From a phage: DNA of 64,000 nucleotides. How positions within the stretch are numbered: position 1 is the stretch's first letter; every line of letters begins with the position of its first letter. The notes under the pieces are model-generated. The model was not told where the DNA came from. It did no database searches and saw only the letters and a list, made by a program, of their open reading frames with translations. The stretch is from the sequence record PZ445439.1. One strand, written 5' to 3'. Shown here in pieces: positions 1,399 through 52,618 of the stretch. Position numbers and translations under genes: made by a program.

Positions 1399-2034
1399 TC
1401 ACAGTTCAGATGCTACAGTGACTACTGCTTCAATGTTTTCTTCCGAGCGTTTAATGTCAAGATACACATTACCGTTTTTAGCGATTTTACATGACATTCC
1501 GATGTCAGTAAATTTCTGAATATGATGTTCCATCATTTTGTATCCAAAAATTCGCATATTTCCATTGTTGTTAATTTCAAAATTACGAATTCCGTGAGTG
1601 CGTTTTTCTAAAATAGCGAGATAGTTACTGCGATAAGTTTCAACCTTTTTAAGAACAAATCCATTTTCATCTAAAAGTTTTAACATGAAGTCTTTATCTT
1701 CTTCCATATCAGAAGTAATCTCACGAGCTTTACGAGTTGCTCGTTTTTTCAGCAGTTCCGGAGCATTTTCTTGTGCGTATAAAGTTGCTGCATTTGAAAT
1801 AATATCCTGAGCTTCACCAGTAATGATTAATCCATCACCAGATTTCTCCACTAGGCCTTTTTTAATCAATACCCCAATATTACTATTAACTACTGCATTA
1901 CCTAAATCTGGATGCACCTCACGAACTTCTGCAGCTGTAATAAAATCTTTCTTAGCAATAGTAATTAAAATTGCAGCAGTTTTTTCATTCAGAACATCGT
2001 TAGAAGCTTTGATGATGTAAGTTACTTTAGACAT
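1399..2034 (-). CDS. motA: MotA, activator of middle transcription
   Basis: 211 aa; sequence MSKVTYIIKASNDVLNEK...VASEL matches recalled T4 MotA almost residue for residue; early promoter cassette immediately upstream. Confidence 0.9.
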   Translation of the reverse strand: MSKVTYIIKASNDVLNEKTAAILITIAKKDFITAAEVREVHPDLGNAVVNSNIGVLIKKGLVEKSGDGLIITGEAQDIISNAATLYAQENAPELLKKRATRKAREITSDMEEDKDFMLKLLDENGFVLKKVETYRSNYLAILEKRTHGIRNFEINNNGNMRIFGYKMMEHHIQKFTDIGMSCKIAKNGNVYLDIKRSEENIEAVVTVASEL

Positions 2035-10462: not shown

Positions 10463-12282
10463 TACTGGCTCATCCATTCTTTGCGAAGGTCAGCATTATC
10501 TCCCATGAGCATTTCAAAAAGCTCTTTCCAATTCTCAGGAAGTTTAACAACATCATATACTGGATTTTGAATCATCTCACGATATTCAGATTTTTCCAAA
10601 GAGCCAAGTCCCTTAATATAACGGATGCTATGTTTAGGTAGAGCATCTTTGGCACTCTCATATTCAGCGACTGTATAAAACCATTCTTGTTTTTTACCGA
10701 CCTGAGCGATGATTACAGGAGTTTTGACAAAGCGAATTCGCCCCTGTTCAAACAGTTCTGGCCAATTACTAAAAAATCCGAGCAGAGAAGGATAAATGCT
10801 TCCTAGACCATCATGGTCAGCATCAGTCATAATAGCAATATTACGATAATTCAAGTTTTCAGCTTTTTCACCAAGAACTAGACCAGTGATTGCGCAAATA
10901 TCAAACAGTTCTTTGTTTTTAAGCATATCGGCATATGACATACCCCAGCTATTAAGAACTTTACCACGCAACGGATAACCACCATGAAGTTCTTTATCGC
11001 GAACATCAATAAGATATCCAATAGCTGAATCGCCTTCGGTTAAGAACAACGTAGTGTCAGCATCTTTACCACAAAGATTCGCTTTAATATGTTTATGAAC
11101 CTTAGCTTTAGAAGCCTTTTTAGCTGCTTTAGTTTCTGCTGCTTTTTCTGCCGCCAATTTACGAGCTAATGCTGCTTCAATAATTGGCATTAAAATTGCT
11201 TCATTATTTAGAATAGCGCGTGAAATCTTTTTAGCATCAAGTTGAATATGACTACGGATTTCACCAAATGGAGAAGTCAAACGCTCTTTAGTTTGAGAAT
11301 CAAATCGCATGTTTTTCATATCACGAACAAACATAACGATAGTCAAACATTCTTTAACACGTGCTTTAGTCACATCAATTTTGAACTTACGTTTGATTTG
11401 TGGAATAAGGTCTTCACAAATATCATCCATAACACAATCAATGTGATGGCCACCATTCTTAGTGTGAATGTTATTCACGTAAGTTAATTGACGAAAACCA
11501 TCCGGTGAACGACCAACCGCAATAGAACAATTTTCTTGCTCTTGAACAATAGCATGCTCATCATATTGGCGTGCATATTTCTTAAAATTACCCTGAACCT
11601 TTTTACCATTAAAGGTAAATTGAATATCAGGATAAACTACAGCAAGTGTCTGGAGACGATCTAGTGTAATGTCAAGATAAACTTGGGACAGCTCATTAGT
11701 TTCAAATGACATAAAATCAGGAATGAAAGTAACACGAGTTCCTTTCCATTTTCCAGGAATATCTTCCCATGATTTATTTTCCATGCCATTTGAACAACGA
11801 ACTACAATATTATTTTGACCATCACCAGTTTCACCGACAAACATCACAGAAAAAATGTTTGTCAAACTAGAACCAACACCGTTCATACCACCAGTGACGC
11901 GTTCTTTATCATCACCAAAGTTACCGCCTGCTTTTGGAATAGTCCATGCAGCAACAGGACCAGGAATTTCTTCACCGGTAGGTGTTTTAACCATCGCTTG
12001 TGGAATACCACGACCATTATCTTCAACTGTTACTTGATTGTTTTTAATAGTAACATTAATTTTATTCGCGAATTTAAACTTAGTACGAATACCTTCATCG
12101 ACTGAGTTATCAATAATTTCATCAATAAGCTTAACAAGACCAGGTACATACTGAACACTTTCCCATTTACCAAACAGAAAGCGCTCATGCATTTCATTAG
12201 CTGAAGAGCCAATGTACATGCCACTACGCTTTTTGATATGTTCAATATCACTCAGAATTTTAATTTCATTCTTAATCATCAC
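10462..12282 (-). CDS. 39: DNA topoisomerase II large subunit, contiguous gene 39 (GyrB-like ATPase + Toprim; includes the part T4 encodes as gene 60)
   Basis: 606 aa; GHKL ATPase motifs (IDNSVDEG, VEDNGRGIP), Toprim and C-terminal region in one frame, no gap or split. Confidence 0.9.
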   Translation of the reverse strand: MMIKNEIKILSDIEHIKKRSGMYIGSSANEMHERFLFGKWESVQYVPGLVKLIDEIIDNSVDEGIRTKFKFANKINVTIKNNQVTVEDNGRGIPQAMVKTPTGEEIPGPVAAWTIPKAGGNFGDDKERVTGGMNGVGSSLTNIFSVMFVGETGDGQNNIVVRCSNGMENKSWEDIPGKWKGTRVTFIPDFMSFETNELSQVYLDITLDRLQTLAVVYPDIQFTFNGKKVQGNFKKYARQYDEHAIVQEQENCSIAVGRSPDGFRQLTYVNNIHTKNGGHHIDCVMDDICEDLIPQIKRKFKIDVTKARVKECLTIVMFVRDMKNMRFDSQTKERLTSPFGEIRSHIQLDAKKISRAILNNEAILMPIIEAALARKLAAEKAAETKAAKKASKAKVHKHIKANLCGKDADTTLFLTEGDSAIGYLIDVRDKELHGGYPLRGKVLNSWGMSYADMLKNKELFDICAITGLVLGEKAENLNYRNIAIMTDADHDGLGSIYPSLLGFFSNWPELFEQGRIRFVKTPVIIAQVGKKQEWFYTVAEYESAKDALPKHSIRYIKGLGSLEKSEYREMIQNPVYDVVKLPENWKELFEMLMGDNADLRKEWMSQ

Positions 12283-16946: not shown

Positions 16947-18266
16947 TCATACGTAAAACACATCATAACGACCACGAGTGACACCAACATAAAGAAGCTG
17001 CTGAGCTAATTCAGCATCTGCATAATGAATACAAGGCGTATAGATGAAAGCACGGTCTACAGACATACCCTGCGCTTTATGGAATGTTGATGCAGGAAGT
17101 GCTTTCACTTTACTAAACTGTGATTTAGCATCCCAAAAATCACTCCATGGAGCTTTTCCGCCTTTATTCCAATTTTTATAAGTTTCTGCGGTTTTACCTA
17201 AAAATAGGTTAAACTTATATAGCTCTTCATCGGATGAAATTATTTTAATCTTTTCACGATAATATTCATCATCGCCATAAGTTTCTACTGTTAAATCCCA
17301 ATGACGAATTAGATATTCTCCAGGAACACCACGAGCTTTAACAAAGGTTGATGTATACTCTGCTTCTATAATACGAACTAATTGTCCGTTATTAAAAATA
17401 ATTTCTGACACAGGCTTTCCATCAATTTTATATGTTTTAATTAATGGTTCCTGCATTACAATAATTTCACCGACAATAAAATCTTTATCAGTTTCAAAAA
17501 TCTTTTTACGAATAATGCTATTTAACTTGTCAACAGATTTATTCGTAAATGCCATTACGCGATTTTCAAACAAATCATCTAGTGATTTGACGATTGAAAA
17601 ATAATTTACCATAAAATCGCGTAAAGCGGTATCACCGGTAAATCCACGTACTCCATGACCGTCAACAACTTTATCATAAATCCACTTACCGTTACGAACG
17701 TCAGTAGCTACATCAATAATAGGAGCATTACTGCGTTTAACTTCAGTGAGTTCACACTGATAAAAATCTTTGTGTGTAAAGAATGGACTGATATAAGCAG
17801 TATTTTCTCCTGGGTCAACAGGTCTAATTTGCTTATTATCACCTATTCCAATTATAGTACACCAAGGTGGAATGGTTGAAAGCAGAATTTTAAATAGCTT
17901 TCTATCATACATTGACACTTCGTCGCAGATTAATACCCTGCATTTAGCTAAATCTGGTACTTCTTTTTGTTCAAAAAGAACGTTTTCTTCATATGTTACT
18001 GGGTTAATTTTGAGAATACTGTGAATAGTACTTGCTTCTTTCCCAGATAGTTTTGAAAGAATCTTTTTAGCTGCATGAGTAGGAGCTGCTAAAATAATAC
18101 CAGTTTCACCTGTAGATATTAGGGCTTCAATAATGAACTTAGTAAGAGTAGTCTTACCAGTACCAGCAGGTCCATTAATAGTTACATGGTGTTTCTTTTC
18201 TTTGATAGCCCTCATAACGATGTTAAAGGCATTTTTCTGGCCTTCGGTCAAATCATCAAATGTCAT
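16947..18266 (-). CDS. dda: Dda DNA helicase (SF1B)
   Basis: 439 aa as in T4; Walker A GPAGTGKT and SF1 helicase motifs. Confidence 0.9.
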   Translation of the reverse strand: MTFDDLTEGQKNAFNIVMRAIKEKKHHVTINGPAGTGKTTLTKFIIEALISTGETGIILAAPTHAAKKILSKLSGKEASTIHSILKINPVTYEENVLFEQKEVPDLAKCRVLICDEVSMYDRKLFKILLSTIPPWCTIIGIGDNKQIRPVDPGENTAYISPFFTHKDFYQCELTEVKRSNAPIIDVATDVRNGKWIYDKVVDGHGVRGFTGDTALRDFMVNYFSIVKSLDDLFENRVMAFTNKSVDKLNSIIRKKIFETDKDFIVGEIIVMQEPLIKTYKIDGKPVSEIIFNNGQLVRIIEAEYTSTFVKARGVPGEYLIRHWDLTVETYGDDEYYREKIKIISSDEELYKFNLFLGKTAETYKNWNKGGKAPWSDFWDAKSQFSKVKALPASTFHKAQGMSVDRAFIYTPCIHYADAELAQQLLYVGVTRGRYDVFYV

Positions 18267-18574
18267 CGTAAATTCCCTGCAATTGGTATACTAACAATAC
18301 GCCCAGTATCTAAAATTCGCTGATATAATCTTTGCGTGTCTACGTCAGGCTTAACATGTTTAACTTCTATTTTATTAAACCAAAACTTACGTGGAGTCTC
18401 AACTAATCTTGGAATTCCCTTACCTAAAGCTAGTCGATACTGCTCTTTAAGAGTAGTAAATACTTTATCAGCAATATTCCATTCAAAAAATACAGCAGGA
18501 CGATGTTCATCAAGTGGAACTGGCGCTGTAAATCCGTCTTTGTCTCGGTAAACTATCGCATATACATAAACCAT
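18263..18574 (-). CDS. hypothetical protein (dda.1 position)
   Basis: 103 aa, 4-nt overlap with dda start. Confidence 0.4.
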   Translation of the reverse strand: MVYVYAIVYRDKDGFTAPVPLDEHRPAVFFEWNIADKVFTTLKEQYRLALGKGIPRLVETPRKFWFNKIEVKHVKPDVDTQRLYQRILDTGRIVSIPIAGNLR

Positions 18575-18575
18575 A

Positions 18576-19322
18576 TTATCCTCGGATAAGTTTAAAAATT
18601 GAACAATTTAGCGGGTATCCTCTTTTCAGTTTAAGTTTATCAATAAAAGACAAATTTTGATACCGCTCTACACCTTGAATAATTTTATCACACATATCAT
18701 ATTGCATTTCTGCTTCTGACAGCTTTTTCACAATTTTCCAATCCGAGCCTTTAAGAAGAACGTTCAGTTTAACAACTTCAGCGCCTTCTGCTATGCGAGA
18801 ACCATCAATACGAGCTTTAAGTGCTATAATCCTTAGCTTAATGTCAGAGGTCTGTTTTGATTTAGAAAGCTGAGAAATGTGTTCAATTCGATTTTCACGT
18901 TTTTTCTGTATAGCTTTAATTTGATTATAAGTCTTTTTGATTTTAGCCCATTTCTTTTCATCTAAATTTAGTTTATGAACTTTTTTCGCAGATGAACGAC
19001 CAATTCGCAAAGCAAATAAATCCCGTTTTTCAATCAACTCTTCTAAAGTATAATCAGAACGAAATGTATTATACTTTTTCTTTACTGCAATAACATTCCC
19101 TTTAATATATCCAATGTTATTATCAAAACGTTCTAATGATAATTTCTCTCCTTCAATACGATTATCAAAAGGTTCTCCCGAGTAAGCACAAACTTTTTGA
19201 TCTAAAATGTTCTTAATGTAATTGAAGTCTAAGTTAAAATCTTTAGAACGTCTTTTAGCAGATGCCTGAGTGTGCTCTAAACGACGTTTAATTTTACGAA
19301 TTTGATTATTAGACAGTTTCAT
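18576..19322 (-). CDS. srd: Srd-like basic protein
   Basis: 248 aa, lysine-rich, map position between dda and modA as in T4; early promoter upstream. Confidence 0.5.
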   Translation of the reverse strand: MKLSNNQIRKIKRRLEHTQASAKRRSKDFNLDFNYIKNILDQKVCAYSGEPFDNRIEGEKLSLERFDNNIGYIKGNVIAVKKKYNTFRSDYTLEELIEKRDLFALRIGRSSAKKVHKLNLDEKKWAKIKKTYNQIKAIQKKRENRIEHISQLSKSKQTSDIKLRIIALKARIDGSRIAEGAEVVKLNVLLKGSDWKIVKKLSEAEMQYDMCDKIIQGVERYQNLSFIDKLKLKRGYPLNCSIFKLIRG

Positions 19323-19339
19323 ATTTTTCTCACATCTTA

Positions 19340-19392
19340 CGGACGATTGACTACTATACTATAACATTTTTACTTCAGATTGTAAACAACTT
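19340..19392 (-). promoter_or_regulatory. early promoter upstream of srd
   Basis: minus strand GTTTAC, 18 nt, TATAGT. Confidence 0.5.
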
Positions 19393-19400
19393 TATGCAAA

Positions 19401-19427
19401 AATGCTTTAAAACTTTCGTGGTATAAT
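19401..19427 (+). promoter_or_regulatory. plus-strand middle-promoter-like element (MotA box + extended -10), antisense to modA
   Basis: plus strand AATGCTTTA, 12-nt spacer, TGG-TATAAT. Confidence 0.35.
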
Positions 19428-19444
19428 GAATCTAAGTCCTTCCA

Positions 19445-20047
19445 TTATAGATTAAATCCTTCAAAATCAAGAGTATAGATAGTATATGTTGAATACTTTT
19501 TATACTCATATCTATCTGCAATTCTAAATACACTTCCAGCTGGTATCATTACTTCTTGTTCATCTGAAACTAATTCCATATTACGATAACGATGGCTATC
19601 CGGAAACTTAAAGTTTGGATTGTATTCTTTACAGCGTAGAGCTTTTATGGCATACTCCTGGAAATTGAATACCATAGGAGCTTTGAATTCAAAAATAACC
19701 TGTGTGTTATACTCTAAACCGGAAGCAAAATGTAGAGCTATATTTTTATCATATGAAGCTGATACGACTTTATCAAATGTAATAATATCAATTCCTTGAT
19801 TTAACACCTGCTTAGTCTCAGCTGGAACACCTCTCCAAAGAGGTTTATCGTTTGGAACCAAACGAGATTTGATTATTTCATTTAACCAAGTATGGTCATC
19901 TGGTTTGTTGGTAATACAATGAATTAAAAGTTCAATTTCAGATAAATTAAACCCTTCAGAAAGTAATTCTTCACGAATAGAAGCACGCACCGATGCATCC
20001 ATTGATTTTATTTTAAAATCTTTTAGTTGCATTACTGAGTATTTCAT
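19445..20047 (-). CDS. modA: ModA ADP-ribosyltransferase
   Basis: 200 aa as in T4 ModA, adjacent and paralogous to modB. Confidence 0.8.
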   Translation of the reverse strand: MKYSVMQLKDFKIKSMDASVRASIREELLSEGFNLSEIELLIHCITNKPDDHTWLNEIIKSRLVPNDKPLWRGVPAETKQVLNQGIDIITFDKVVSASYDKNIALHFASGLEYNTQVIFEFKAPMVFNFQEYAIKALRCKEYNPNFKFPDSHRYRNMELVSDEQEVMIPAGSVFRIADRYEYKKYSTYTIYTLDFEGFNL

Positions 20048-20667
20048 TCAACTACCTCAATATCATAAACTTTAAATGTTCCAAATGAATCGTGTAATTT
20101 TTCTTTTGAAATAGAAGTTATTCTATACTTTCCAATTGGAATCATCCATTCCTGTTCACGCACAATCATCATTAAGTTATCAGTACGCTCTGAATCTAGC
20201 CCATCAGTATCTTCATACGTATACTTAAACTCAGTATTAGGAGAAGAAAGTATAATATCGCTGATATGGTCAGAATAATTAAAAGCTTTATCAGTTTTTA
20301 AGCGAAGTATTATTTTAGTAAAATATTCAGCATAAGAAAAAGAACATGCTGTGAGCAAACTAGTAGTAAATGAATCTACTCTATTCGTTGAAAACACTTC
20401 TCCAACTTGTAAATCTTTAATAAGTTCTTCTGTTGATTTTGATATACCACGATATAACTGATAAGGCGATTTAGTTAAATGCTTTTTAACGATTTTATTC
20501 AACTGCTGATGAAGAGCTTCATTCTTTTTAGCTTCCATACATTGCCAAAGAATTGACTGCTCAAAGTCAGTAAATTTTTCACAGACTTTTTTATACATAT
20601 CATATTGAAAATCAACGCTTTCAGCTTTTATAGATAACTGTTCAACATCTGCAAGATTAATAATCAT
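20044..20667 (-). CDS. modB: ModB ADP-ribosyltransferase
   Basis: 207 aa as in T4 ModB; 4-nt overlap with modA; early promoter upstream. Confidence 0.8.
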   Translation of the reverse strand: MIINLADVEQLSIKAESVDFQYDMYKKVCEKFTDFEQSILWQCMEAKKNEALHQQLNKIVKKHLTKSPYQLYRGISKSTEELIKDLQVGEVFSTNRVDSFTTSLLTACSFSYAEYFTKIILRLKTDKAFNYSDHISDIILSSPNTEFKYTYEDTDGLDSERTDNLMMIVREQEWMIPIGKYRITSISKEKLHDSFGTFKVYDIEVVE

Positions 20668-20694
20668 GATAGCCTCCGTATACTTCAGAAGCTA

Positions 20695-20735
20695 TCATAT
20701 CATTGTTAGGAAGGAAAGTAAACAACTTTTTGAAT
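20695..20735 (-). promoter_or_regulatory. early promoter upstream of modB
   Basis: minus strand GTTTAC ... TATGAT. Confidence 0.45.
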
Positions 20736-52148: not shown

Positions 52149-52618
52149 TTTAAACTCTTTCTAAGCTGCTTCTTAAATGAAGCTATTAACTGTGTTTTAG
52201 TGTCAGATTCATTATATTCAAATCCTCTTTGAAGCATCTCAGCCATCATTTCCTCTTTTCCTAAACGAGAAAATTCCTTTGATTTATCTCCAACAAAGTT
52301 AGGGTGAATATTGTTTTGGGTGTAATCGGATTTTAAATAAGTAAGTAAATTTTCTAACCATTCAAGATAATCAACGCCTTGTCCCTTTAAACCAGAACGA
52401 TTAAATTTGTGCTTCATTTGACCTTCTGCAGCATTACACAGATTACATAACAATCCACGTACCTTTCCTGCTTTCGGTCCATTTAATTCATGGTCATGAT
52501 CGAGGTGATTAGCTTGAACATCAGGATTTAATTCTCGTTGGCAAATTAAGCATTTACCATTTTGTGCATTATAAAATTTTTGTTTTTCTTCTTTATATAA
52601 TTTGCCAGTCAATAACAT
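52145..52618 (-). CDS. 49: endonuclease VII gp49 (Holliday junction resolvase)
   Basis: 157 aa as in T4; His-Cys box LDHDHELNGPKAGKVRGLLCNLCN. Confidence 0.85.
   Translation of the reverse strand: MLLTGKLYKEEKQKFYNAQNGKCLICQRELNPDVQANHLDHDHELNGPKAGKVRGLLCNLCNAAEGQMKHKFNRSGLKGQGVDYLEWLENLLTYLKSDYTQNNIHPNFVGDKSKEFSRLGKEEMMAEMLQRGFEYNESDTKTQLIASFKKQLRKSLK

Follow-up and report, generated by a model that had tools for sequence, protein, structure and literature searches.

A middle-promoter-like element directed antisense into modA is conserved among Tevenvirinae and may serve to shut off an early phage gene

Among phages, T4 serves as the reference for how transcription is controlled over time, and its middle promoters have a published definition: a MotA box, (a/t)(a/t)(a/t)TGCTTtA, stands 12 ± 1 bp from a −10 hexamer, TAtaaT, and a TGn extension is present in about half of them (PMC2988021). 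MotA-dependent promoters also serve in replication, as minimal oriF and oriG each comprise such a promoter and a downstream unwinding element (PMC3016281). Fifty-eight T4 middle promoters have been identified experimentally, and each is listed under the name of the gene or intron ORF that it precedes. To our knowledge, all 58 face their gene in the sense orientation (the table itself gives no strand). Promoters opposed to a gene are found in other settings: the OOP RNA of lambda (against cII), the sar RNA of P22 (against ant) and the antisense transcription of T4 gene 32 bring about a timed down-regulation by RNA pairing and/or convergent transcription, and transcriptional interference operates between the face-to-face promoters pR and pL of coliphage 186 and Pant and Psar of P22. 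Here, we describe an element at the 3' end of modA that, judged by its sequence, would be a new and unusual member of the known middle-promoter class, both antisense and linked to one gene.

The stretch of DNA analyzed (the window; 64,000 nucleotides of record PZ445439.1) is that of a T4-like phage (Tequatrovirus). The 1.2-kb stretch around the element shows 100% identity to Escherichia phage FelixPlatter and about 97.7% to T4, and matches some 500 Tequatrovirus records. When the FelixPlatter record (MZ501065.1) is mapped by motA and by modA, the two window origins come out 446 bp apart; the window as a whole is not perfectly colinear with that record, and the modA region is 100% identical. 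Both MotA and the anti-sigma70 protein (AsiA) are annotated in FelixPlatter, this being the closest record; motA is within the window and asiA lies just beyond its edge. The element sits in the 122-bp spacer between modA and srd, and the features that matter for what follows are these:

1399–2034, minus strand: motA, the trans-acting activator that reads MotA boxes (Pfam MotA_activ, E = 4.8e-61; MotCF, E = 1.4e-65)
16947–18266, minus strand: dda, an ORF named from the T4 and RB14 records
18263–18574, minus strand: dda.1
18576–19322, minus strand: srd
19358–19386, minus strand: srd early promoter, from the promoter scan, with −35 TTTACA (19386–19381), a 17-nt spacer, TG and −10 TATAGT (19363–19358)
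19401–19409, plus strand: MotA box with its A/T-rich 5' flank, AATGCTTTA; core TGCTTTA at 19403–19409, centred near −30 of the predicted promoter
19410–19421, plus strand: 12-nt spacer, AAACTTTCGTGG, its last three bases, TGG (19419–19421), forming a TGn extended −10
19422–19427, plus strand: sigma-70 −10 hexamer TATAAT (6/6 match)
19428–19441, plus strand: discriminator and initial transcribed region, GAATCTAAGTCCTT, with the predicted start at A19434
19445–20047, minus strand: modA (RNA polymerase alpha ADP-ribosyltransferase), from the ORF list and named by identity to the T4 and RB14 records
20044–20667, minus strand: modB, upstream of modA and co-transcribed with it
20722–20694, minus strand: promoter-like site upstream of modB, from the promoter scan

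All real genes near the element are carried by the minus strand, and the predicted plus-strand start, taken as the seventh base past the −10, lies 11 nt beyond the modA stop codon. The preliminary description of this DNA, which had placed a near-consensus middle-type promoter at 19394–19430, an interval enclosing the box, the spacer and the −10, and had it pointing antisense into modA and modB in a neighbourhood of minus-strand genes, is borne out on each of these points. As its possible role, that description had put forward a regulatory antisense RNA or a transcriptional roadblock. The sequence AAATGCTTTA at 19400–19409 has zero mismatches to the MotA-box consensus, and the 12-bp spacing falls within the 12 ± 1 bp of the middle-promoter definition (PMC2988021). 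A −35 hexamer is absent at 16–18 bp upstream of the −10, where the hexamers read AAATGC, AAAATG and AAAAAT, and a −35/−10 scan returned no plus-strand promoter ending at 19427. In these respects the element is like the MotA/AsiA promoters of T4, such as PuvsX and PrIIB2, which have the same box, the same 12 ± 1 bp, a perfect −10, a TGn and no −35, and its activator, like theirs, is phage-encoded. It also shares a discriminator and start motif with strong middle-promoter-like sites: the conserved start region reads GAATCTAAG / GGTTCTAAG, and GAATCT / GGTTCTAAG follows the −10 of strong gene-strand sites of this kind at 52235, 59200 and 24123 of the window. Because the motif recurs after the −10 of these other sites, it seems to characterize the promoter class and does not point to a second function. 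By its features, then, the element would belong to the T4 middle-promoter class; unlike the 58 listed members, it faces the 3' end of a gene and has no ORF to express. With both a TGn and a perfect −10, the T4-like copy may also have some activity that does not depend on MotA. The equivalents in T4 are the box at 11866–11872 and the −10 at 11885–11890, with a plus-strand start expected near 11897.

The element is a rare one within the window. Searched on both strands, TGCTTTA-N11-13-TATAAT occurs three times in the 64 kb, against an expectation of 0.04 and a maximum of one in 100 shuffles; one occurrence, the element, is on the plus strand and two are on the gene strand. With the core relaxed to GCTT-N13-15-TAnnAT, three sites are found on the plus strand vs 28 on the minus strand, and therefore the strand bias is strong and the plus-strand background low. 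A position-weight matrix built solely from the 28 minus-strand sites gives the element 24.4 bits, the highest score of any position on either strand (the runner-up has 23.1). The second-best middle-promoter-like site of the plus strand, GCTTCAATAATTGGCATTAAAAT at 11174–11196, has a matrix score of 17.5.

We compared the srd neighbourhoods of ten annotated relatives and of 51 IMG/VR loci. Among the annotated relatives the antisense-oriented element was found in Mosigvirus (RB69, ESCO47), Dhakavirus (MX01), Karamvirus (ZX13), Winklervirus (Gravdalen), Gelderlandvirus (STML-198), Jiaodavirus (ValerieMcCarty04) and Tegunavirus (fHe-Yen9-01), in each case as a box, 12–13 nt and a perfect TATAAT; it is absent from Krischvirus. 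The preliminary description had pointed to conservation in related phages as a check, and here the IMG/VR loci are unequivocal: the element is kept at the modA stop in all 41 that have a ModA-type gene upstream of srd, a set which spans 14 diverged lineages and at least eight genera of Tevenvirinae, and in which spacer and flanks have diverged. Because the 14 lineages are related by descent, independent observations are fewer than the figure of 41 loci suggests. All 41 have a perfect TATAAT, and the MotA box has at most one mismatch in 38, the other three reading CGCTTTT. Conversely, the element is missing from nine of the ten loci that have srd and no ModA-type gene, and the tenth (L061) has a weak match only (TGCTGTA, 13 nt, TATTAT). 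In L061, a 147-aa ORF (2223–2666) takes the position of modA upstream of srd; judged by eye from its sequence, it resembles a macro (ADP-ribose-binding) domain.

When the 14 diverged lineages are aligned on the −10, information content is concentrated in the MotA box (1.5 bits per column), the three bases before the −10 (1.3 bits) and the −10 hexamer (1.5 bits), followed by the positions from −6 to +8 (0.97 bits); the rest of the spacer (its first 10 positions) has 0.28 bits per column and the flanks 0.2–0.4. Spacer length is 12–13 in every lineage, and the surrounding intergenic sequence is otherwise unalignable among them. Bipartite conservation of this kind, in which the box and the −10 are kept while spacer and flanks are free, is the signature of a promoter. 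At closer range, the variable positions among 10 Tequatrovirus sequences fall outside the box, the −10 and the start region, in what is a small sample of close sequences; a megablast search with a 50-nt query returned 54 of the roughly 500 Tequatrovirus records, a number limited by word size and spacer polymorphism that is not to be read against that total. In the other genera, a pattern scan shows that gene-strand candidate sites resembling middle promoters share the box variants TGCTTTT and TGCTTTC.

In all 14 lineages the predicted start is between −3 and +40 nt from the ModA-type stop codon, and it is the arrangement with the srd early promoter that varies. In the divergent layout (T4-like, RB69-like and MX01-like phages and three further lineages), the element comes directly after the modA stop and the srd early promoter 0–18 bp beyond the box. 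The window has this layout; the two promoters stand back-to-back, as had been noted before, with 16 bp between the srd early promoter and the MotA box, which overlaps the upstream UP-element zone of that promoter. In the convergent layout (ZX13, Gravdalen, STML-198 and L034), the early promoter precedes the element, and 13–17 bp separate the two −10 hexamers; occupancy of the two would therefore be mutually exclusive. A predicted early promoter is annotated at the srd-equivalent place in Lutter and fPS-65. A gene-strand TATAAT is also present over the modA stop of the window (19444–19449, minus strand), 16 bp from the antisense −10 and convergent with it, and without a good −35; it may mirror the early promoter of the short-spacer genera as a vestige of the convergent layout. 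The srd leader holds an 11-nt motif, CGTCCGTAAGA (19335–19345, minus strand), about 10 nt upstream of the Shine–Dalgarno sequence and able to form a 4-bp mini-hairpin, which is kept in T4-like, RB69-like, L019 and MX01 phages (L004, L006, L010, L019) and which in Jiaodavirus ValerieMcCarty04 is found within the spacer of the antisense promoter.

These arrangements bear on the alternative that survives best, namely that the element chiefly controls the neighbouring srd early promoter, or insulates srd–dda, and does not serve mainly to silence modA. Bound MotA and RNA polymerase would displace the alpha C-terminal domain and polymerase from the overlapping early promoter, and would block read-through into srd at middle times. 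The position of the box in the UP-element zone of T4-like phages favours such a role, as does the closeness of the convergent −10 hexamers in the four phages named above. However, in L032, L033 and L048 an extra small ORF (~2751–2950) splits the element from srd and its early promoter, which is some 200 nt off, and the element is still at the modA stop; the insertion amounts to a natural experiment in which the element stays with modA. Moreover, fHe-Yen9-01 keeps the element without a recognizable early promoter there, and ValerieMcCarty04 keeps it with a sole sense promoter-like site that is weaker and 44 bp away. The ten loci with srd and no ModA-type gene, among which only the weak match in L061 was found, also speak against a function centred on srd. 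Only two things are invariant in the comparison: the element adjoins the 3' end of a ModA-type gene, and it is oriented into that gene. We consider it unlikely that control of srd is the main job.

A second alternative is that the element is the priming promoter of an origin of the oriF/oriG type, with a persistent R-loop RNA that would prime clockwise leading-strand synthesis and possibly contribute to oriA. From the gene order of T4, soc is presumably about 3 kb from the element, and we take the promoter classically tied to oriA, P56/69, to be at 16.8 kb. The origin oriA maps to the same part of the genome, close to soc, and a MotA-dependent promoter in its vicinity has been tied to it (PMC3016281). 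With oriF (uvsY) and oriG (34), then, the element would share a MotA-dependent promoter, a noncoding transcript (predicted here) and an origin-bearing map region, and a noncoding transcript that has neither ORF nor terminator would suit a primer. It differs from them in being linked to one gene and not to a genome position, and probably also in lacking a marked A+T-rich unwinding element. The A+T content of the first 60 nt downstream (+1 to +60) is 0.73 in the window vs 0.68 for the locus, and 0.60–0.70 vs 0.59–0.67 in the relatives, a slight enrichment only (0.60–0.73 vs 0.59–0.68 overall). Furthermore, oriA lies outside the regions of transcriptional divergence, according to the review (PMC3016281), and an origin role, which we regard as quite improbable, would not lead one to expect so strict a linkage to modA.

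Still less probable is a reading in which the conserved bases serve the gene strand, as an RNA signal within the 3' UTR of modA or the leader of srd (a processing site or a translational operator) or as the site of some other protein, the resemblance to a promoter being coincidental. In the short-spacer genera the element does lie within the srd 5' leader, with the complement of the box ending 15–17 nt before the next ATG, and there is extra conservation for about 14 nt past the −10. However, that downstream conservation recurs at other middle-promoter-like sites, and the conserved blocks coincide exactly with a MotA box, a TGn and a −10 at a spacing of 12–13 nt. No consensus secondary structure was found on either strand (RNAalifold energy 0), and the element region has no match in Rfam. 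In the T4-like, RB69 and MX01 phages, moreover, the element is upstream of the srd early promoter and is therefore absent from that transcript. The preliminary description had itself cautioned that a chance match in AT-rich DNA was possible. The window is about 65% A+T, TATAAT-like hexamers are common in it, and generic sigma-70 promoter-like matches in the region are no more numerous than in shuffles (17 vs 18.5); that the element is a functionless match is nevertheless hard to credit, given a strict pattern expected only 0.04 times per window, a site of first rank, and its retention in 14 diverged lineages whose intergenic surroundings are otherwise unalignable and whose divergent spacers argue against recent horizontal copies. 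The caveat can be set aside on the strength of the conservation beside the modA stop in 41 of 41 loci. Least credible of all is an ordinary mRNA promoter for a small plus-strand gene hidden in modA: short plus-strand ORFs exist, for example at 19620–19799 (59 aa, TTG start), but in the window there is no ORF of at least 25 aa within 186 nt of the predicted start and no Shine–Dalgarno context, and ORF positions and frames vary between lineages, the weak similarities being shadows of homologous modA frames.

Two narrower forms of product were considered for the element and rejected. A coding role fails in that no plus-strand ORF is conserved in position or frame among the lineages, and a discrete small antisense RNA in that there is no conserved antisense terminator or fold; the antisense strand has weak terminator-like hairpins only, which are not conserved among relatives. 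The nearest sequence downstream on the plus strand is modA antisense. An early promoter is annotated upstream of modB in the relatives Lutter and fPS-65, at the other end of the unit that the predicted transcript would enter, and modB itself would be reached only by a transcript of more than 600 nt. In the modB leader (20665–20699, minus strand), a 14-bp hairpin pairs the modB Shine–Dalgarno sequence and start codon (GGAGGCTATCATG) with upstream sequence; although flagged by the terminator scan, it looks more like a means of sequestering the ribosome-binding site.

The best explanation overall, and one that we hold to be moderately probable, is that the element is a functional MotA/AsiA-dependent middle promoter whose antisense transcription silences modA. 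We are confident of the first part, that it is a selected and active promoter; on whether the silencing of modA is its main role, the case is evenly balanced. What is observed is the sequence of the element, how rare it is statistically, its bipartite conservation and its link with modA; from these we infer that it fires, when it does so and what its transcript brings about. The element would be read by sigma-70 RNA polymerase that AsiA has remodelled and MotA recruits, and from about 2–4 min after infection an untranslated plus-strand RNA would start at ~19434 and run antisense through modA and possibly modB. The element would thereby oppose the early modB–modA unit and any middle-mode read-through into it, by head-on collision between its polymerases and any that set out from the modB/modA early promoter or read through from further upstream, and the antisense RNA could also pair with modA mRNA. 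In this way ModA, a toxic early enzyme, would be shut off once the middle programme starts. A second, local effect, competition with the adjacent srd early promoter, is likely because the element overlaps either the UP-element zone of that promoter (T4-like layout) or its start site (short-spacer genera).

The review literature reports that ModA synthesis is highly toxic and that polymerase modified by ModA is less active, and it holds the way in which early expression is stopped to be unknown (PMC2988021). Silencing by an opposed transcript would resemble the action of OOP, of sar and of the antisense transcription of gene 32, where, likewise, a promoter that lies in or at the 3' portion or the leader of a regulatory or toxic gene is directed against that gene. 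OOP and sar are short RNAs with defined terminators, whereas the antisense element described here comes with no conserved terminator or fold; and whereas systems of the OOP/sar type are expressed constitutively, the timing here would be set by the phage activator MotA. The likeness to the face-to-face promoters of 186 (pR/pL) and P22 (Pant/Psar) is closest in Karam-, Winkler- and Gelderlandvirus, where the early promoter is convergent with the element and the −10 hexamers are 13–17 bp apart, and in all layouts the element opposes the modB–modA early unit. In T4-like, RB69-like and MX01-like phages, unlike in those systems, the adjacent promoters are back-to-back and only the distant modB promoter is convergent.

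The published table of 58 experimentally identified T4 middle promoters does not include the element. The element may have been tested and found silent; more likely, only candidates upstream of genes were tested. Some middle promoters that look like the consensus are inactive on modified T4 DNA, and these have GATT boxes and not GCTT (PMC2988021). The annotations of T4 (NC_000866, AF158101, M30001), Lutter and fPS-65 list gene-strand early promoters only, the element being absent; in every record checked, it has escaped promoter prediction that considered the gene strand alone. Full-text literature searches yielded nothing relevant on MotA-dependent promoters in antisense orientation or on a modA antisense RNA, and no mention of the coordinates of the T4 site, and an RNA-seq paper from the Hinton lab does not discuss antisense reads. 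A T4 dRNA-seq study reports 22 antisense start sites (bioRxiv 10.1101/2024.04.04.588121), and the element may already be among them. The dRNA-seq data for T4 are public (GEO GSE255091, on NC_000866.4; 0, 4, 10 and 20 min) and, owing to its intergenic position, the element can be mutated without touching any protein.

A bolder view, which is speculative and rather unlikely, is that the element closes an autoregulatory loop, in which the product of the reaction of ModA would switch on the promoter that turns modA off. ADP-ribosylation of the alpha C-terminal domains by ModA would release them from the UP-element DNA of srd, which is also the DNA of the MotA box; MotA and the AsiA-remodelled polymerase would then occupy the antisense promoter, and modA would be silenced. 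In a still bolder variant, the antisense transcript would also prime replication at oriA. If antisense shut-off of modA is true, it would be the first case in which sigma appropriation serves antisense transcription, and it would provide a concrete candidate for the scheduled switch-off of one early function. If the autoregulatory loop is true as well, the element would be part of a hard-wired and conserved timer of the early-to-middle transition in Tevenvirinae.
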